Shown here: piece by piece, positions 14,622-30,125 of the stretch
How the letters are laid out: the number at the start of each line of letters is the position of its first letter
How positions within the stretch are numbered: the first letter of the stretch is position 1
Sequence record: OQ791282
Length of the DNA stretch: 47,865 bases
Direction: 5' to 3' (one strand)
Origin: Shigella phage Henu10
Notes under the pieces: model-generated
The model's database searches: none
Told to the model about the DNA's origin: nothing
Seen by the model: the letters and a program-made list of their open reading frames with translations, nothing else
Program-made: the position numbers and the translations under genes

Positions 14622-14645
14622 GATTTTAAAAGCGTGTTTTAAAAT
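14622..14645. repeat. 25-bp dyad-symmetric motif, copy 2 (GATTTTAAAAGCGTGTTTTAAAAT)
   Basis: Same arms and core (opposite core orientation) as 6240..6264; abuts ATG 14646. Confidence 0.6.
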
Positions 14646-15775: not shown

Positions 15776-16813
15776 AAGTAATTTAGCATTATTTTCTATC
15801 CATTCAGGCTTATACTTCCAATTCTTAAAGCGGTCTTTATTGTCTTTAACCCACTGATTAAACTGCTTCGGTGTTGCTCCTATATAGTATTTAGAGGTTT
15901 CAGGTGGCAGTTCTTGGTTATTGTTGAGTTCCTTTATAAGTTCCTCATCGCTTTTTAAAATGGTTCTTCTGTGGCACATACAGCCAATATGCCACTTGTT
16001 CCAGATAAAGTTTTTAGGGTATCTTCCTGCTAACTCATCGCAAATGTCGTAAACTTTATGACTTGGGGATAAATGAATTTCTACGCCCACCACATCATTA
16101 TTCTGCATTATTCTTATTTGTTCGCTGGTGCGGTAAGCGGTGTTAATTTCTTCCTTAGCTAATCGCAAAGCGTTTTTGTGTGCCGAACGGTAAACGCCCT
16201 GACCTGGATTATAATATTTGGCATTTTGACTTAATACTAAATTGCCGTGCTTGTCTCTTATCCTGCGGTATAGTCTGTCGGGTTCGTTTAGGTTCTTTTT
16301 GATTTTACGAGCGAGTTCATTGGCACTCATTCCCTCCGAAAGGCTAACATCAATAGCCATCTCTAACTCGGACTTTACTTGTTGGGTAATACTCCAAACT
16401 CTCTCGGATAGTGTAAAATCGTTTATCTTTCGTTGCTGAAAAGAATGTAAGGCTTTGAGGTTATGAGGCGTTTTTGCTACCTTTTCAATCTCTCGGATAT
16501 AGGTTTCCTTGCTTAGTTTATGAGCTAACCTTTCCAAAGTAGCTATTCGCAAAGCATTGTATTTTTCATTTGCGAATTGCCACTGTTTCTCCGTTCCTAT
16601 ATTGATAGTATTAAGCGTGTTTTTGTAATAAGAATCTAAAGCCTTTTCAATCTCCAGTAGTATTTTTTTATTATTGCGGAAGCGGTAAATCTTGTTTGTA
16701 ATATCAGACTTAACGACCAAAGATGAAACCCTTGCAATCAAACCATTGTAGATTTGTTCAAGGGTTCTTCCGTATTGTTTTACTCGTTTCCTATGTAGTG
16801 TATCAAAGTCCAT
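15770..16813 (-). CDS. Phage head morphogenesis (minor head) protein, putative
   Basis: 347 aa directly downstream of putative portal gene with coupled start/stop. Confidence 0.45.
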   Translation of the reverse strand: MDFDTLHRKRVKQYGRTLEQIYNGLIARVSSLVVKSDITNKIYRFRNNKKILLEIEKALDSYYKNTLNTINIGTEKQWQFANEKYNALRIATLERLAHKLSKETYIREIEKVAKTPHNLKALHSFQQRKINDFTLSERVWSITQQVKSELEMAIDVSLSEGMSANELARKIKKNLNEPDRLYRRIRDKHGNLVLSQNAKYYNPGQGVYRSAHKNALRLAKEEINTAYRTSEQIRIMQNNDVVGVEIHLSPSHKVYDICDELAGRYPKNFIWNKWHIGCMCHRRTILKSDEELIKELNNNQELPPETSKYYIGATPKQFNQWVKDNKDRFKNWKYKPEWIENNAKLLS

Positions 16814-18171
16814 CAGATAGCGAATGATTTGCTATTAGCCAATTCGTTAATTCTATCGTCTTCCTCTTGTATCTGCTGTATCATTTCTTTTGGATTCTTA
16901 ATGCCGAGTTTTTGCATAGCATATTCTTGCGAGTAGAGAGGCTTATTGCCATTAGCTTCCATTAAGAAACGAACGAAATCCGCATCGTTATTGATGATGA
17001 AAGGAGTAATAATTGGCTCTACATCTAAGTCATTATTCTTTAGTTTTACATTGAACATTTGTAGGTGCGACTTGATGATACTTGCTCTTCTTTGAAGGGC
17101 AGGAATATAAATAGCCAGCTTGTCCATTACCTTGAGGTGTGCCGATAAAAACAAAAATTCAGCATTGCTTCCTGCTAACATATTACCCAAACCTTTCATA
17201 TTGTCAAAGCTAATATTTGGTGTAGCGGTAAAGTCGTGAACATCTCGTTCTAAACGGTCGGTTTCTTCCGTGAGGCTTTGGTTAGCTTGGGGTTGATTGG
17301 CAAATTCAGCTTCCGCTCCTTCTTCTAACTGTAGTACACGCCCAGACTTGTCTTGTGATAACTGCCCTGTTACTTTGCCTTTTAGTTTTAAAATAGGAAA
17401 AGAAAAGCGGTCGTTGCTTTCTGCGGTGTTAGAATAAATGTGCTCCAATCTTTCAATGGCAGTTTGCACATCTGCCCACTCTACATTTTCCTGCTTGTAG
17501 TACACTATCGGAATTTTTCCTATTGCGTTAGGAATATCGCTTATTTTTTTCCATTCTTTTTCTTGTTCATATCTGATAATCCTTTCGTCTGTATAAACCT
17601 CAAAAATGGTTTTATTTCCATTCTTGAACTCCCGAGCAAAAGAAATAAGGTTGTCGTTTTCGTCAAATTTCGGATATAAGCTATAAATGTCAGGTGTCAA
17701 AACTTTAACCTTTAGCCTAAATTTTGCTCTAAACCCATAATGTTCGTTAGGTTCATCGGTAAAATACCAAAGCTCGGCACATTCTGTAAATCGTCCCACA
17801 GAGGTTGCGATTTCCCTATCCACAAATTTCATCTTGTTTTTTTCAATAACCTTTAAAAAGGCTTTAAATAGCTCATCGTCCTCGAGGTTATTCGTGTATT
17901 TGATAGGTTCGCCACATAAAAAGGTAGTTGCTATATTGACTATCTTTTTTTGATAGGGAAGACCGATGCGATTAAGGGGTATGGTTACTTTTTGTTTTTG
18001 CTTATTTCCTTTTTCGTCTGTATAGTCTGACACCACCGTTCTATCCGGGTATTTTACCAAATCGGTAAAAATTTTATGCTTTTTTACTTCATATTGGGAG
18101 TTGAACAGCGTAATATCAGGCAAAGTACGCTCCCCTTTATGTTTTTCTATTTCTTGAGCAATGGTATTCAT
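16813..18171 (-). CDS. Portal protein, putative
   Basis: 452 aa immediately downstream of terminase large subunit. Confidence 0.55.
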   Translation of the reverse strand: MNTIAQEIEKHKGERTLPDITLFNSQYEVKKHKIFTDLVKYPDRTVVSDYTDEKGNKQKQKVTIPLNRIGLPYQKKIVNIATTFLCGEPIKYTNNLEDDELFKAFLKVIEKNKMKFVDREIATSVGRFTECAELWYFTDEPNEHYGFRAKFRLKVKVLTPDIYSLYPKFDENDNLISFAREFKNGNKTIFEVYTDERIIRYEQEKEWKKISDIPNAIGKIPIVYYKQENVEWADVQTAIERLEHIYSNTAESNDRFSFPILKLKGKVTGQLSQDKSGRVLQLEEGAEAEFANQPQANQSLTEETDRLERDVHDFTATPNISFDNMKGLGNMLAGSNAEFLFLSAHLKVMDKLAIYIPALQRRASIIKSHLQMFNVKLKNNDLDVEPIITPFIINNDADFVRFLMEANGNKPLYSQEYAMQKLGIKNPKEMIQQIQEEDDRINELANSKSFAI

Positions 18172-18263: not shown

Positions 18264-18284
18264 GATTTTAAAAGCGTGTTTTAT
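18264..18284. repeat. Dyad-symmetric motif, copy 3 (GATTTTAAAAGCGTGTTTTAT)
   Basis: Directly downstream of terL stop and about 90 bp upstream of portal start. Confidence 0.55.
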
Positions 18285-19583
18285 TTACAAAATACTCGCA
18301 ATCTGCTGTAAATCGTTTTGGATAGGTTCGTCAAGTTCTATAAAGCCGTAACGAAGAGCATCTATCAAGTGGTTATGTTTGTCAATAGGGATACCAGCTT
18401 TTTTATCGTTCCAAGCGTAATTGCGGAGTTCCTTTTTGAGGTTATGGCTATTCTCGGTTACAATAATTTGATATTCTAACATTTTTAAAATAGAGGCGGA
18501 CACGATGCCAGGCTTTTTCTTTGTTGGTTTTATGTTTAATCCTTTTTTACGCAAGTCCTCAATTAGTCGTGGCTCAGCACTATCGCCTACTATTAAATCA
18601 TTTTCTCGGTCTATAAGGCTTTTATTTAGCAGATACAAATCATCTGTTGAGAGTTGATTGTTTCCGTAATATTTCTCATCAGCATAGATAATTTTTCTTT
18701 TGTGGTCAATAGCTACCTTAACTAATGTATCTGGGTCTATGCTAAATCCGTAATCTTGACCATAGCAGTAAGGAATAGATGTGTCAAAGTCGCCTTCCTT
18801 CCAATTAGTAAAGATAACGCCCTCTGCCATATCAGACCACCTGCCTATGATTTTTTGAGCGTACTTGCTCTTATTGAATAGGGCTTGGTCTAATTTACCG
18901 TTTATAGTACACTGCTCTATACTTTCCTGTTTTATACGCTCTATATTAGACAAGAATTGTTCTGACAAGTTCTCTATGTTGTCTAAATAGGTCGTGTGGA
19001 TATGTAGGACATCGGGGTGGGTGCTTATCTGTACATCTACACCGTCAATCTGTACTATCTTATGGGTATTTTCAATATATTTTTTATAAATAAAATGGTC
19101 GGAGTCGGTAGGGTTGAGTATCAGTATAACTCTTAATTGTTTATTTTTCTGACGAATGGATAGGATTAACTTTTCGTAATCTTCCTCGTTTTCCCACTCT
19201 TCCATTTCATCGCCCACGAAGGTGGTTATCCCCTGTATGGATTTAAGGTTTGCTGTTTGGTTTCCTGACGAAGTTTTTATCCCTCTAAATAAAATACTAC
19301 TTCCTGAAAATTTATTTAGTATTTCATTGTTTGTTACTGTAAAATACTCCTGCACGCCCTCTTTTTCTATTTTTTCCTCAAACTCTGGAATGATAGAAAT
19401 ACGAGCGGAGGTCATCGTGTAACGGCTAAAGAGCATCTTATGCCCAGCTTCAAAAGATAATCGCTCTACAAAGGTAGTCGCATTATAGGATTTTGCAGAC
19501 CCTCTACCTCCAGTAAGGAGTATAATAAACTTGTCTTTGTTGGTGTAAAGAGGGTTATATACTTCTTGTGTTTTTATTGGCAT
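18285..19583 (-). CDS. terL: Terminase large subunit
   Basis: 432 aa; Walker A LLTGGRGSAKS near N-terminus; nuclease-type C-terminal half; follows small subunit. Confidence 0.8.
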   Translation of the reverse strand: MPIKTQEVYNPLYTNKDKFIILLTGGRGSAKSYNATTFVERLSFEAGHKMLFSRYTMTSARISIIPEFEEKIEKEGVQEYFTVTNNEILNKFSGSSILFRGIKTSSGNQTANLKSIQGITTFVGDEMEEWENEEDYEKLILSIRQKNKQLRVILILNPTDSDHFIYKKYIENTHKIVQIDGVDVQISTHPDVLHIHTTYLDNIENLSEQFLSNIERIKQESIEQCTINGKLDQALFNKSKYAQKIIGRWSDMAEGVIFTNWKEGDFDTSIPYCYGQDYGFSIDPDTLVKVAIDHKRKIIYADEKYYGNNQLSTDDLYLLNKSLIDRENDLIVGDSAEPRLIEDLRKKGLNIKPTKKKPGIVSASILKMLEYQIIVTENSHNLKKELRNYAWNDKKAGIPIDKHNHLIDALRYGFIELDEPIQNDLQQIASIL

Positions 19584-19677: not shown

Positions 19678-20160
19678 TTATTCTTTTTCTTGTTGATTGT
19701 TTATTTTGAGCCAGTCCGAAATGTTGATACTACCTTTTTGGTTCAGCTCTATATCTTGTCTGTCTCTCCACGCTTTAGGCTGTCTATTTTTCAACCAAAA
19801 TATTTGGGCTGATGTTTCAGGAGGATAATAGTCTTCTACCTCTACAACTTCTACTTTCTCTATCTGTCTATCGTGTTCGTCATATTGCTTTACTTTGATT
19901 GGTACTTGTCTTTTTTCCTTATGCCCCAAAGCTCTTTTATACAAAGTAGAAGCTACATTAGCATCAGCTTCTTCTTTTCCCTTTTTTATGGACTCTAAAA
20001 ATTCAGGGTGTTCGTTCTTCCAATTATTTAAAGTCCCTTCTGTAATCTCAAATAAATTAGCCATTTGAGCATCAGTAAGTCCAGCCAAACAATATTTTAA
20101 TGCTTGTGCAGGGTGATAATTAGCGTCATATTTCGTGGGTCTTCCTACTTTATTCTCCAT
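19678..20160 (-). CDS. Terminase small subunit, putative
   Basis: N-terminal GRPTKY... HTH region typical of small terminase DNA-binding domains; upstream of terL. Confidence 0.55.
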   Translation of the reverse strand: MENKVGRPTKYDANYHPAQALKYCLAGLTDAQMANLFEITEGTLNNWKNEHPEFLESIKKGKEEADANVASTLYKRALGHKEKRQVPIKVKQYDEHDRQIEKVEVVEVEDYYPPETSAQIFWLKNRQPKAWRDRQDIELNQKGSINISDWLKINNQQEKE

Positions 20161-20887
20161 TCTCTATTATTTCTGCAAATTCTTCTCCTTTTATGAACTT
20201 AGTATCTCCGCTTAAGTGAAATCGCTCTAAGAAAAACACTTTATTCTCATAGCTGTCAAAAGATAGGGTGATATAAGGGTCTCCCTCATAAACGGTTCCT
20301 TCCTTAACTTTCGCTTTAGCTTCTTTTACGGCTTGTTTTTTTTCCTCTTGTGAGGCTTCTTCTTCACTATCTTGTGTTTTAGCCTTTTCTTTCTTTTCTT
20401 CTTGAGGTTCAAAAGTAGGCACTTCAATATTTAGGTCTTTAGGTAGTTCTACCTCTATAAAAGAAAGGTCTATATCATCTAAACCTGCTAAATCTACATC
20501 AATATCAGGAACGATTAAAGCTAACTTTTGGTAGTCCATTTCTCCTTGTACGGACTTGGAGTTAAAGAATATGTTTAGCTCTTTCTCTGTCTTTAAATCT
20601 ACATTGATAACTTCTACTTTTATCTCGTAGTCGTTCTCTTTTGTAGAGGAATTATATTTATTTACTTCGTCAGCAATAGATAACTTTTGATGTCCCGATA
20701 CTAAATTTGTGGTTAATTCGTTCCATACCATTCCCCCTATAATGCCGTTTGCCTTGATGTTCTTTTTTAAGGCTTTTCTTGCTTCATCAGTTATCTTTCT
20801 TGGATTGTATGGAGCGGGCGTTATTTGGCTTCTTAGTATAGTTCTAGTTTCAGATTGCTTTATTTTGTTTTTCATAGTCATATTCAA
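20150..20887 (-). CDS. ParB-like nuclease domain protein
   Basis: N-terminal ITPAPYNPRKI...GHQKL resembles ParB/Srx N-terminal domain; acidic low-complexity C-terminal half; overlaps neighbours on both sides. Confidence 0.55.
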   Translation of the reverse strand: MNMTMKNKIKQSETRTILRSQITPAPYNPRKITDEARKALKKNIKANGIIGGMVWNELTTNLVSGHQKLSIADEVNKYNSSTKENDYEIKVEVINVDLKTEKELNIFFNSKSVQGEMDYQKLALIVPDIDVDLAGLDDIDLSFIEVELPKDLNIEVPTFEPQEEKKEKAKTQDSEEEASQEEKKQAVKEAKAKVKEGTVYEGDPYITLSFDSYENKVFFLERFHLSGDTKFIKGEEFAEIIENGE

Positions 20888-21554
20888 ATAAAATTCTTTC
20901 CGTGTCGGGAAACTCTTCTATAACTCTTTTTAAATCCCCTGGAGCGTTTGCCCTACACCATAAAAGAAAAGAAAGGTTTGTTACATCTGTTCCTTGCGAC
21001 CTTGTGTTTCCTACATTTCCATATTGTAATGGCTCTATAAGTCTTTTTTTACTTATAAACTGCAAAACTTCTTTATTAGACCACTTGGATAATGGGTATA
21101 CCTTTTGTGTCTCTTCGTTTATTATTTCGTTTTCATAGGTTCGCAACATCAACCTCCTGTTGAGGCTGTCGTTTTGCTTAAACCCATACACTGCCCATTG
21201 GATACCCGTTTCTTCCTTAATTTTTTCTGTAATTGTTGATAGGTTGTATTGTGCATAATTTACCTCATTAGTCCCGCAGATGCCTAATTTTTTATAATTG
21301 TAGTAGGCGTAATGTGGGGTTTGAATAAACGAGGCATTCTTATATCTTCTTTCAGCCCAAAGAATATATTTGTTTATATGCGAAAGGTCTTTGACCATAT
21401 ACATATACACACACTTTACCTCTTTGAAATAAGGGCTTAACATTTCAAGTAAAGCGATGCTATCTTTGCCATTGGCAGAATGAAAGAGTAAAACCCTGTC
21501 CGTTTTTTCAGACAAGGCTTTAATACTCTTCATTGTGTCGGCTAGCAGGTTCAT
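20850..21554 (-). CDS. PAPS reductase-like PP-loop protein
   Basis: LLFHSANGKDSIALLEML matches the PP-loop motif of the PAPS reductase family. Confidence 0.6.
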   Translation of the reverse strand: MNLLADTMKSIKALSEKTDRVLLFHSANGKDSIALLEMLSPYFKEVKCVYMYMVKDLSHINKYILWAERRYKNASFIQTPHYAYYNYKKLGICGTNEVNYAQYNLSTITEKIKEETGIQWAVYGFKQNDSLNRRLMLRTYENEIINEETQKVYPLSKWSNKEVLQFISKKRLIEPLQYGNVGNTRSQGTDVTNLSFLLWCRANAPGDLKRVIEEFPDTERILFEYDYEKQNKAI

Positions 21555-21726
21555 TTATTACTAAATTGCACCGTTAGCCTTCAATCTTCTGTTAGTTCTA
21601 CCAAAAGAAGACAGTTTCCCTTTCTCGTAGTCTTTTTTTGTTCGGTAGGCTTGTCTTTTCCCGCCTGTGTAACGAACTGCATAAGGTTCTGGCATAATAA
21701 TTTAAGTTTTAATGGTTAATTTTGTT

Positions 21727-22185
21727 TTAAATGTTTTCTCTATTGATTACTCTTGCAATAGGTATTGCGAAAATCATAGGCACTTCGTCTTCATCTGTTA
21801 GATTTTTGAATTTTGCAGGTTCTTCATCTAGCTCGTTAAATCCGTATGATTCTCTTACAAATTTAACATCTTCTTCATCTGCTGGGCTTATAATGTGCGG
21901 TGGGTATATTTCTACATCTAAGTGCCACGATTGATTATAGTTCGTGAATCTAATGTATGTTATATCTTCACGCACAATATCATCTATACCCATAGAACCG
22001 TCTGGATTTTCCAAATACTTATTAAAGGTTTTTTCCTTCTCTTTATCTACAAACATTTTATGATAAAAGTCTGAAAAATCTCTTATTTCTACCGTTTTAC
22101 TACCGTTTGCGATAGCTTCTGCATAAGGCTTTCTCATTAACAGCTTGTAAGCCTCAACTTCTGTATTATTTACCTTTATTTTCAT
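21727..22185 (-). CDS. ASCH-domain protein, putative
   Basis: N-terminus LLMRKPYAEAIANGSKTVEIR resembles ASCH/PUA-like domains. Confidence 0.4.
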   Translation of the reverse strand: MKIKVNNTEVEAYKLLMRKPYAEAIANGSKTVEIRDFSDFYHKMFVDKEKEKTFNKYLENPDGSMGIDDIVREDITYIRFTNYNQSWHLDVEIYPPHIISPADEEDVKFVRESYGFNELDEEPAKFKNLTDEDEVPMIFAIPIARVINRENI

Positions 22186-22372
22186 TTTTCTATTTTTTTT
22201 AATTGTTGTTTCATTCTTTCTATTAACTCAATGTGTTCTACTAACTTACCCCTTGTCTTTGTTTTGTACTTCTGTATGGCTTTTGCTTCAATCATTACTT
22301 TACAAAAGTAGTCTTAATCTATTATATTTCAAATATTAAAGCGTGTATAAATTCAAAAAAAATAAAGATTTT

Positions 22373-22396
22373 GATTTTAAAACACGCTTTTAAATT
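22373..22396. repeat. Dyad-symmetric motif, copy 4 (GATTTTAAAACACGCTTTTAAATT)
   Basis: Immediately downstream of the 22398..22712 stop; a degenerate half-copy at 22336..22352. Confidence 0.55.
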
Positions 22397-28999: not shown

Positions 29000-29812
29000 T
29001 TAAAAATTGCAAACACACTTGTTTTCTTCAAAGTTTAGCTCTCCTGTAAAAGGGAGCTTAGAAAGCTCTACTAAATCGTCAATACTTTTATGACCTCTAA
29101 AAGAGGTATTGCCATATTTCCCCTCCATTTTTCTATACCAGTCTATAAAACGAGTTCCCTTTCGGATAACATCTATTAGATTGGCGTCAGATTTTTTCCA
29201 ACATAGTTCGCAGTTTCCATACTTGTTGTGTATTTCCAACTTGAATGGCTGACTATCCCAAAATTTATTTAGTTCCATTTGTCCTATTGGAAATTGAAAA
29301 TCAGTCAAAAGTGGAAATATCCTTATTTTGTCTTCCTTGATTTCTGCCCAACTTATTCGCTTGGGCATATCTTCTTTACGAAATCCAATAGCTTTTAAGT
29401 AACTATTCACACCGAAAATATCATCTGCAATTTTTTTAGCAGGTAATGTTTTAAGCATTTCGCTACAAAAAGGGGCTTCAAGGTTGGGCATACCATTAAA
29501 TGCTCCTTTATTTTTGTGTGCAATAGCATTCTCAAATGGTTTAGCAGTCATATCTAAGTTATCCCAATCTACTAGCTTGTAACTAACCCCAACACCCATT
29601 TCTGATGAATATACGCCTTCAATTTTAACAAGTGGAATATTCCAATGCTTCTCTATATTTTTGAGAAAATCTATCGTCTCTGGTCGCTCCATTCCTGTAT
29701 TGCAGAAAACAAACAACTTATTGTAATCCTTATATTTTTCGGATACTTGGATATGTCGTGCCATCATAGCGGAACTTCTCCCTCCAGACACTGTTATTAT
29801 TAAATTTTTCAT
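29000..29812 (-). CDS. PP-loop ATPase (PAPS reductase-like) with C-terminal Cys cluster
   Basis: N-terminal IITVSGGRSSAMMARH PP-loop; C-terminal CELCW...C.C cysteines. Confidence 0.55.
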   Translation of the reverse strand: MKNLIITVSGGRSSAMMARHIQVSEKYKDYNKLFVFCNTGMERPETIDFLKNIEKHWNIPLVKIEGVYSSEMGVGVSYKLVDWDNLDMTAKPFENAIAHKNKGAFNGMPNLEAPFCSEMLKTLPAKKIADDIFGVNSYLKAIGFRKEDMPKRISWAEIKEDKIRIFPLLTDFQFPIGQMELNKFWDSQPFKLEIHNKYGNCELCWKKSDANLIDVIRKGTRFIDWYRKMEGKYGNTSFRGHKSIDDLVELSKLPFTGELNFEENKCVCNF

Positions 29813-29837: not shown

Positions 29838-30125
29838 TTATGAATTCACAATGATAGCTTCTACTCCTGCAACAGCTTCTGGTTTTAATTCCAAAAAGTC
29901 TGTGCCTATTTGGTTGGCTTTGTTTTTACATATTTCTGCTAAATCCTTGTTGATTTCGCAGAAAAGAACCTCCTTAGCTCCGTACTCTTTCAGATAATCT
30001 ATAATATTACCTTTTCCTGCACTTGGCTCTAAAATAGTTTTGTTATTTACATCTAACTCCATAAGGTCTAAAACCTCTCTAGGAGTAGGGTAAAAGTCTT
30101 GGTTGAATAGGTTTTGGTATTTCAT
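29838..30125 (-). CDS. SAM-dependent N6-adenine DNA methyltransferase-like N-terminal fragment
   Basis: FYPTPREVLDLM followed by ILEPSAGKGN resembles motif X and motif I of gamma-class amino-methyltransferases; ORF stops (…AIIVNS) before any NPPY-type catalytic motif. Confidence 0.4.
   Translation of the reverse strand: MKYQNLFNQDFYPTPREVLDLMELDVNNKTILEPSAGKGNIIDYLKEYGAKEVLFCEINKDLAEICKNKANQIGTDFLELKPEAVAGVEAIIVNS

Follow-up and report, generated by a model that had tools for sequence, protein, structure and literature searches.

The 47,865-nucleotide (nt) stretch analysed here, called the window below, comes from sequence record OQ791282 of Shigella phage Henu10. Directly upstream of its terminase genes, on the minus strand, it carries four genes for a probable ASCH protein, an Arg/Lys-rich protein of 44 amino acids (aa), a PP-loop protein of the phosphoadenosine phosphosulfate (PAPS) reductase superfamily and a ParB/Srx-fold protein (the last two are referred to as PAPS-like and ParB-like). 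It is proposed, from sequence comparison, structure models and analogy, that these genes form a late-expressed cassette for the modification of nucleic acid, most likely DNA, a reading to which we give a probability of about 0.45. The PAPS-like/ParB-like pair is read as a ParB-assisted DNA-modification module because relatives of the ParB-like protein accompany a methylase, Mom or a DpdA-like transglycosylase in other phages.

The PAPS-like/ParB-like pair and its genomic context

A scan with a degenerate pattern made from the alignment of the PAPS-like protein yielded 80 IMG/VR loci (52-97% identity). In all 80 the gene after the PAPS-like one is a ParB-like gene, and packaging genes then follow; in one locus (L023) the PAPS-like and ParB-like genes are about 550 nt apart. 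Counted over 18 dereplicated lineages, as are the small open reading frames (ORFs) discussed below, an overlap of 8-35 nt between the two frames is seen in 16 lineages, and a gap of 2-3 nt in the remaining two. The pairing also holds in IMG/VR loci where the TerS or TerL of the window has no detectable homologue, and other terminase families are therefore assumed to be present there. More distant relatives retain the arrangement. In Bacteroides phage BS-TP2 (37% and 41% identity) the order is ASCH, small ORF, PAPS-like, ParB-like, TerS (DUF5681) and TerL, and in the Lactobacillus phages LR1 and JNU_P7 (Bacillota) it is PAPS-like, one or more genes for Arg-rich or basic proteins, ParB-like and TerS, with TerL and portal after TerS in LR1 and with an ASCH protein and an ArpU late activator upstream in JNU_P7. 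Four relatives at 27-30% identity, represented by five loci, all have a downstream ORF that matches the ParB-like profile (1e-38 to 1e-52, five of five) and shares the same three-part architecture; in three of the four this ORF lies upstream of Terminase_3, Terminase_6N or Portal_Mu modules. By sequence, the pair is inherited as a unit across the family, almost always upstream of terminases of whatever family. Since it is inherited as a unit with usually overlapping frames, we infer coupled synthesis and joint function of the two proteins.

The N-terminal domain of the ParB-like protein was found by tblastn in 116 records of isolate phages, and four cases were inspected. Gp77 of Listeria phage B054 is a ParB_N and N6_N4_Mtase fusion. 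The ParB-like gp62 of Enterococcus phage phiEf11 overlaps gp63, which is Mom (PF25680, 1.8e-45), and both genes lie after an ArpU-type activator near the record end. In Faecalibacterium phage Roos, the ParB-like orf76 is followed by a DpdA-like tRNA-guanine transglycosylase (TGT; phrog_887, 1.6e-18) and then by a Vut_1/YhhQ-type transporter, so that the region looks like a 7-deazaguanine DNA-modification module; its genes (L088, 3498-6094, at the record end) are annotated as hypothetical proteins only. The ParB-like gp42 of Bdellovibrio phage phi1422 adjoins TerS in divergent orientation. Such partnerships have precedents in characterised systems: the PP-loop enzyme DndC is accompanied by DndB, a member of the ParB superfamily (PMC10853773), and DpdA works with a ParB-like ATPase, DpdB (PMC12839542). 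According to a 2025 survey, the ParB-CTPase folds of phages are prophage-enriched, bind CTP, ATP or GTP and are fused mainly to DNA methylases and the PUA-like DUF3850; PAPS-reductase partners are not mentioned in it (PMC12704722).

The preliminary description of the window had placed ASCH, PAPS-reductase-like and ParB-like genes in a tightly overlapping operon directly upstream of the terminase. All of the ORFs it named are present on the minus strand, and the coordinates bear out the tight operon and its position. The features are as follows.

22303-22333, minus strand: promoter-like element of the Bacteroidetes type, TTTG-N19-TACTTTTG, which ends 8 nt ahead of the operon's first ORF
22182-22295, minus strand: remnant of a NinG/Rap endonuclease gene, 37 aa, recognised by alignment with RAP44
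21727-22185, minus strand: ORF for the ASCH-like protein, 152 aa
21561-21695, minus strand: ORF for the small Arg/Lys-rich protein, 44 aa, sequence MPEPYAVRYTGGKRQAYRTKKDYEKGKLSSFGRTNRRLKANGAI
20850-21554, minus strand: ORF for the PAPS-reductase-like PP-loop protein, 234 aa
20150-20875, minus strand: gene for the ParB/Srx-fold protein, 241 aa from a conserved ATG, or 245 aa if the TTG at 20887 is used
19678-20160, minus strand: TerS, 160 aa; phrog_309, 8.9e-55
18285-19583, minus strand: TerL, 432 aa; Pfam Terminase_3, 8.2e-28, and Terminase_3C, 2.9e-16
16813-18171, minus strand: ORF for the portal protein, 452 aa

The 11-nt overlap between the stop of the ParB-like gene and the start of TerS (20150-20160) is exact as described, but the 38-nt overlap given for the PAPS-like and ParB-like genes is obtained only with the TTG start, and the conserved ATG at 20875 reduces it to 26 nt. 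In the family alignment the ParB-like homologues begin at the equivalent of Met5 (MQNKIKQSET), and record MZ995504 of phage PT03 annotates the start at the same residue; 20875 is therefore the likely start and 26 nt the likely overlap. Two ORFs had been overlooked, the 44-aa ORF and the 37-aa NinG remnant. The latter arises from an in-frame 315-bp internal deletion relative to the NinG of RAP44 (gp37), its stop overlaps the start of the ASCH-like gene (ATGA), and it is the first ORF of the transcription unit.

The promoter-like element occupies the intergenic gap between WYL_2 and the NinG remnant, and a promoter function is suggested for it by the Bacteroides -33/-7 promoter consensus. The pattern TTTGN{18,21}TANNTTTG has six matches in the window against 2.3 expected, and six were reached in one of 100 shuffles. 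Because the element and the NinG-remnant ORF lie directly upstream, the sequence places the cassette at the head of a transcription unit that runs into the terminase, portal and head genes. Scanning the window for Rfam families and tRNAs gave no matches.

A palindrome, ATTTTAAAA-CACGC-TTTTAAAAT, is found in intergenic regions at 6241-6263 (plus), 14623-14645 (minus) and 22374-22396 (plus), and its 9-mer core, AAAACACGC, also at 18274 (minus), 19607 (minus), 7527 (plus) and 16615 (minus). The seven occurrences of the core compare with 0.38 expected, and seven were reached in none of 100 shuffles. Copies of palindrome or core are situated a short distance before the cassette promoter, between TerS and TerL, and immediately after the TerL stop; the palindrome may be a terminator, a processing hairpin or an operator.

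Between positions 18000 and 24000 the window is 100% identical to the Riemerella anatipestifer siphophages vB_RanS_PT03, PT15 and PT33 and 98.5% identical to RAP44, and by this comparison the window phage is a RAP44/PT03-type Riemerella anatipestifer siphophage. The RefSeq record of RAP44 labels gp32 'ParB-like nuclease', gp33 'phosphoadenosine phosphosulfate reductase family protein' and gp34 hypothetical protein, all upstream of TerS (gp31) and TerL (gp30). In MZ995504 the product names are shifted by at least one row against the genes, with TerL labelled 'DNA methylase', TerS 'PAPS reductase family protein' and the portal 'terminase'.

A direct role in packaging is suggested by the position next to the terminase genes. 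The ParB-like 'nuclease' might aid the terminase in pac/cos recognition, cutting or concatemer loading, with the PP-loop protein as a cofactor, in analogy to the HNH proteins of some cos phages, and the 11-nt overlap with TerS would fit, as would the fact that the pair adjoins packaging genes in essentially every locus examined; in Flavobacterium phage FCL-2 a comparable pair lies between TerL and portal. We regard this role as unlikely: the pair is kept while TerS and TerL are swapped (no detectable homologue, a DUF5681-type TerS, Terminase_3 versus Terminase_6N), other small genes are inserted between the ParB-like gene and TerS in several lineages, an ATP pyrophosphatase has no known packaging role, and relatives of the ParB-like protein encoded at this position are linked with a methylase, Mom or DpdA and not with the terminase. 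The earlier suggestion of a DNA modification or packaging-associated function is accordingly narrowed, modification being favoured by the comparative context and packaging weakened by a pair that stays linked across unrelated TerS and TerL proteins.

Features of the cassette proteins

The PAPS-reductase-like assignment made in the preliminary description holds, since the 234-aa protein matches Pfam PAPS_reduct (PF01507) with E=7.7e-9 and 36.2 bits, above the cut-off of 22.5, and phrog_424 with E=5.4e-20. An alignment with 15 homologues displays the motifs SxxGKDS (the PP-loop), GFKxxDxxNRR and YPLS, of which SxxGKDS is invariant. Cys48, located in a core beta-strand, is the only invariant cysteine across the 15, and the C-terminal region contains an invariant Ser186-x-Gly188. 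The family is large (754 clusters at 50% identity in a HMMER search at E<=1e-3, 374 at 1e-10 and 44 at 1e-30); of the 150 best members, those of full length have about 210-300 aa, and fusions to ParB or methylase domains are not apparent among them. From the Pfam and PHROG matches, the motifs, the failed cut-offs described below, the absence of PADLOC matches and the Foldseek results, the protein is assigned as a PP-loop ATP pyrophosphatase of the PAPS-reductase superfamily with its ATP-binding loop kept; the same sequence features exclude a sulfonucleotide reductase, a sulfur inserter of the DndC type and IbrA.

A genuine CysH or CysD that boosts host sulfur assimilation is what the GenBank/PHROG labels 'phosphoadenosine phosphosulfate reductase' and 'moron, auxiliary metabolic gene' would imply, and a PDB sequence/profile search gave a marginal match to CysD (1zun, 1.3e-3). 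The NCBIfam similarity to CysD and CysH is weak, with 13-21 bits against cut-offs of 154-413. The catalytic motif of CysH is of the ECGLH type and lies in the C-terminal tail; the PAPS-like protein has neither this motif nor a conserved C-terminal Cys, and CysH/CysD identity was rejected. The strictly conserved pairing with the ParB-like gene and the packaging-operon location also argue against an auxiliary metabolic gene (AMG) of sulfur metabolism, a highly improbable reading that motifs and cut-offs effectively refute.

The AlphaFold2 (AF2) model of the PAPS-like protein has a pLDDT of 87 and a pTM of 0.84. Its best Foldseek match in the PDB is TtuA (5e-8), followed by LarE, the GMP synthetase ATPPase, ArtA (a nitrile synthetase), NAD synthetase and APS reductase (2goy, 7.5e-5); the matches in both PDB and BFVD are generic PP-loop enzymes with TM-scores of about 0.5. 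That the top match is a tRNA 2-thiouridine synthetase raises the question of whether the enzyme, like TtuA, TtcA or TilS, thiolates or aminates an RNA of host or phage, the ASCH-like protein being its RNA-binding partner; ASCH is classically an RNA-associated fold (cited in PMC12704722). Such a role seems to us rather remote. The similarity to TtuA is weak, and of the cysteines only Cys48 is invariant, those that ligate Fe-S being absent; the obligate partner has a ParB fold and is not ASCH, a protein that some lineages lack; no tRNA genes are found in the window; and a late-operon position would be unusual for genes of translation takeover.

A second PAPS_reduct protein is encoded at 29000-29812 (minus strand, 270 aa; Pfam 3.1e-6, phrog_424 9.8e-42) in the replication/early region, and BLASTP finds no relation between it and the PAPS-like protein of the cassette. 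It adjoins a 95-aa ORF (29838-30125, minus strand) that resembles a segment of a DNA methyltransferase (phrog_31814, 3.8e-65), an arrangement that recalls lambda NinC and the Vibrio PAPS-Dam anti-Dnd fusion.

The ParB-like protein had been called a ParB/Srx-like nuclease-domain protein; the ParB fold stands on PHROG and Foldseek evidence, but there is no Pfam match. It matches phrog_9353 (1.9e-88), phrog_620 'ParB-like partition protein' (8.3e-21), the N-terminal ParB part of the ParB-methylase family phrog_498 (3.8e-19) and the N-terminus of the PADLOC MTase_II model (1.1e-9), and its relatives match Pfam ParB_N at 1e-5 to 4e-4, below the cut-off. Profile alignment equates its YNPR and SGHQ(K/R) motifs with ParB boxes I and II of Spo0J, and a PDB sequence/profile search gave a marginal match to Spo0J (6sdk, 0.25). 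In the AF2 model residues 12-110 have a pLDDT of 75-88, most of 114-205 fall below 50 and 205-243 are at about 65. The architecture is thus an N-terminal nucleoside triphosphate (NTP)-binding fold, a disordered linker rich in acidic and Lys residues, and a small conserved C-terminal domain. Foldseek matches the N-terminal domain to ParB-CDP (6sdk, E=4.8e-4, probability 1.0) and then to Noc, pNOB8 ParB-N, KorB and sulfiredoxin (Srx). On sequence and model, the protein has a ParB/Srx NTP-binding fold and no detectable helix-turn-helix (HTH). A canonical partition ParB was rejected on account of the missing HTH, the missing GERRxRA motif and the lack of a TIGR00180-type NCBIfam match, and no ParA-like match was found among about 25 window ORFs scanned.

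The ASCH-like call is sustained by a motif and by position-equivalent proteins, but the Pfam score is below threshold (PF04266, E=0.0056, 17.8 bits against a cut-off of 21.2). A GxKxxExR-type motif, said to have been described by Iyer et al. in 2006 as the N-terminal ASCH signature, is present as GSKTVEIR at residues 28-35, with G28, E33 and R35 invariant in the family alignments. Three of nine ASCH-like family members, the window protein included, match Pfam ASCH at E<=0.01; the best of the family is the position-equivalent gp48 of Lactobacillus phage JNU_P7 (7.3e-7, 30.3 bits). With hhalign, the Bacteroidota ASCH-like family aligns to the JNU_P7 ASCH protein at E=9.5e-5 and 59% probability over the N-terminal 32 columns only; a PDB profile search reached the ASC-1 ASCH at E of about 0.9, and the equivalent gene of phage BS-TP2 is annotated ASCH. 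The product of 21727-22185 is therefore a probable ASCH protein with a PUA-like fold.

The 44-aa protein has no Pfam, PHROG or NCBIfam match. Homologues at the same position, with about 55% identity, are found by tblastn in diverged loci, and an Arg/Lys-rich ORF of 31-55 aa (17-33% R+K) immediately precedes the PAPS-like gene in 17 of the 18 lineages; most of these ORFs start M-[AP]-E. In the Lactobacillus phages the same module contains Arg-rich proteins of 92-141 aa, those of JNU_P7 ending in GSKGG or GSRGG. Examples are:

Small Arg/Lys-rich ORFs of other loci: L009, 1344-1475; L037, 5858-6001; L020, 5891-6001; L083, 4836-4997
Arg-rich ORFs: L084, 5669-6040, 6043-6465 and 7278-7556

The ASCH-like and small Arg-rich proteins appear to be frequent accessory members of the cassette.

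Proposed function of the cassette

It is proposed that the amounts of the PAPS-like and ParB-like proteins are coupled and that the two act jointly, the ParB-like protein as an NTP-dependent, DNA-engaging partner, comparable to DpdB for DpdA, to DndB for DndC and to the ParB part of phage ParB-methylase fusions. With ATP, the PP-loop enzyme would adenylate a position on the replicated phage DNA, and a nucleophile that is not cysteine-borne would then displace AMP. The group installed is probably not sulfur delivered in the manner of DndC, because a conserved cysteine pair and Fe-S ligands are absent. Expression from the head of the packaging operon would let the concatemeric DNA be marked just before encapsidation, and the mark would shield the genomes of the progeny from restriction by the host or from modification-dependent defences. 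The ASCH-like protein, an accessory member, probably has a fold of a kind that reads or processes modified nucleic acid.

Several observations weigh against modification of DNA. The best structural matches of the PP-loop protein are enzymes that modify tRNA or small molecules (TtuA, LarE and GMP synthetase), and because all TM-scores are low, about 0.5, they do not indicate a substrate class. PADLOC returned no DndC, SspD or BrxP match for the PAPS-like protein (0 families at E<=0.1), and the cassette and the neighbours scanned contain no sulfur-, amine- or glutamine-donor enzyme. No DNA-binding domain is recognisable in the ParB-like protein, in which neither Pfam nor the AF2 model reveals an HTH. 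DNA modification in RAP44-type phages was not reported in the literature searched and is undetectable from sequence. The E. coli IbrAB proteins are described, reportedly, as an activator of prophage gene expression and not as a modifier (cited in PMC4541368).

A more specific form of the proposal, which we consider speculative and improbable, is that the four genes constitute a packaging-coupled DNA modification shared across phyla, with a chemistry beyond methylation, Mom, 7-deazaguanine and phosphorothioate. One possibility would then be that a group other than sulfur is substituted on an adenylated backbone or terminal phosphate; conceivably, the Arg-rich micro-protein itself could be attached covalently to DNA ends.

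The genes and their superfamily labels are already known from GenBank, and PAPS-like/ParB-like pairs are known from IbrAB and DndBC. We did not find described a short, cysteine-poor PP-loop subfamily without DUF3440 that has an obligate ParB-like partner with a distinct C-terminal domain, nor the accompanying Arg-rich micro-protein, the frequent ASCH gene and the placement at the head of packaging operons across phyla. Phage 'PAPS reductase' genes are routinely labelled as sulfur-metabolism AMGs, and ParB-like genes as partition proteins or nucleases; one well-defined subfamily of each forms, judging from gene order and overlap, an obligate and probably translationally coupled pair heading packaging operons in Bacteroidota and Lactobacillus phages. 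If the pair does install a DNA mark, it would represent a new enzyme class for phage anti-restriction chemistry, would explain a widespread mis-annotation and would offer a way into the long-standing puzzle of the IbrAB and NinC-type proteins. It would also be relevant to phage therapy against Riemerella, because DNA marks set host range.

Comparison with known systems

The preliminary description could not assign the cassette to a characterised system, and the same conclusion is reached here: PADLOC gives no DndC, SspD or BrxP match, the NCBIfam scores are far below the CysH/CysD cut-offs and DUF3440 is absent. Apart from this sub-threshold CysD/CysH similarity, neither PADLOC nor NCBIfam assigned any of the cassette proteins to a family. 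No characterised phage module of ParB and PAPS-reductase proteins was found in the literature searched, and the papers on RAP44-family and P. gingivalis phages do not mention the PAPS-like and ParB-like genes.

To our knowledge, IbrAB is the only PAPS-like/ParB-like pair that has been studied experimentally. E. coli IbrA and IbrB resemble the window pair in combining a PAPS-reductase-superfamily protein with a small ParB/Srx protein, encoded by adjacent, overlapping genes in a phage or prophage setting, and the Flavobacterium phages FCL-2 and 6H have annotated IbrB/IbrA-type pairs. In FCL-2 the two genes overlap by 19 nt; gp08 is ParB_N-like (E=4.5e-4), gp09 matches PAPS_reduct (1.5e-16) and DUF3440 (4.1e-10), and the pair sits between TerL and portal, that is, in the packaging module. 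A gene with an SNF2-related helicase domain (gp07) lies directly upstream of this pair (L090, 4145-7009). The differences are considerable. IbrA-type proteins have about 380 aa and a C-terminal DUF3440, whereas the PAPS-like protein of the window has 234 aa and lacks DUF3440; the ParB gene comes first in FCL-2, the reverse of the order in the window; and the ParB-like protein of the window has an additional acidic linker and conserved C-terminal domain compared with the IbrB type. Orthology to IbrA/IbrB was rejected, since hhalign gave E=5e-5 for gp09 over 57 columns only and 0.035 for gp08, and DUF3440 is missing.

These resemblances bear on a further explanation, in which the pair activates or fine-tunes the expression of late (packaging and morphogenesis) genes. 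The same two superfamilies are paired in E. coli IbrA/IbrB, reported to switch on the prophage eib genes, the FCL-2 pair lies inside a packaging module, and in the window the cassette stands at the head of the late operon, with a promoter-like element just ahead of it. Neither protein of the window pair is an orthologue of IbrA or IbrB, however, and neither has an HTH or other DNA-reading domain; the pair lies inside the operon it would activate, downstream of its own promoter, and in the Lactobacillus and Enterococcus phages an ArpU-type late activator is already present upstream of the module. A regulatory role is thus doubtful, and it is not fully exclusive of the modification proposal, because IbrAB-like regulation may itself act through a DNA or RNA mark.

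DndB/DndC resembles the proposed modification cassette in linking a ParB-superfamily gene with a DNA-acting, PAPS-reductase-like PP-loop enzyme (PMC10853773, PMC12839542). No Dnd, Ssp or BREX model in PADLOC was matched at E<=0.1, and no matches to DndA, DndD, DndE-like, desulfurase or Ssp/Brx partner proteins were found in the cassette, its neighbours and the scanned part of the early region. The PP-loop protein of the window differs from DndC in lacking the cysteine dyad and the Fe-S ligands. DndB is a regulator with a DGQHR motif, where the ParB-like protein of the window has SGHQ(K/R), and the Dnd genes reside in defence islands whereas the window genes belong to a phage late operon.

Lambda NinC and the Vibrio phage PAPS/Dam fusion are likewise phage PAPS_reduct proteins and not enzymes of sulfur assimilation. 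NinC, a non-essential protein, has no known function (PMC10695390), and the Vibrio phage fusion of a PAPS domain with Dam confers escape from Dnd (bioRxiv 10.1101/2021.05.05.442762). Unlike the cassette gene, they belong to early or nin-type regions or form a fusion with a methylase. Canonical ParB proteins share with the window protein the N-terminal ParB/Srx fold and the equivalents of boxes I and II, but the window protein lacks the HTH, GERRxRA and TIGR00180-type features and gives no sign of a partition role.

The ParB-coupled modifiers of other phages have a homologous ParB-like N-terminal domain (tblastn 1e-6 to 1e-12) that is fused to the enzyme or encoded by a gene overlapping or close to the enzyme gene, and in the phages inspected they are found near the record end, a pre-terminase position, or adjoining TerS. 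They differ from the window cassette in the partner, which in the window is a PP-loop ATP pyrophosphatase and not a methylase, Mom or a transglycosylase.

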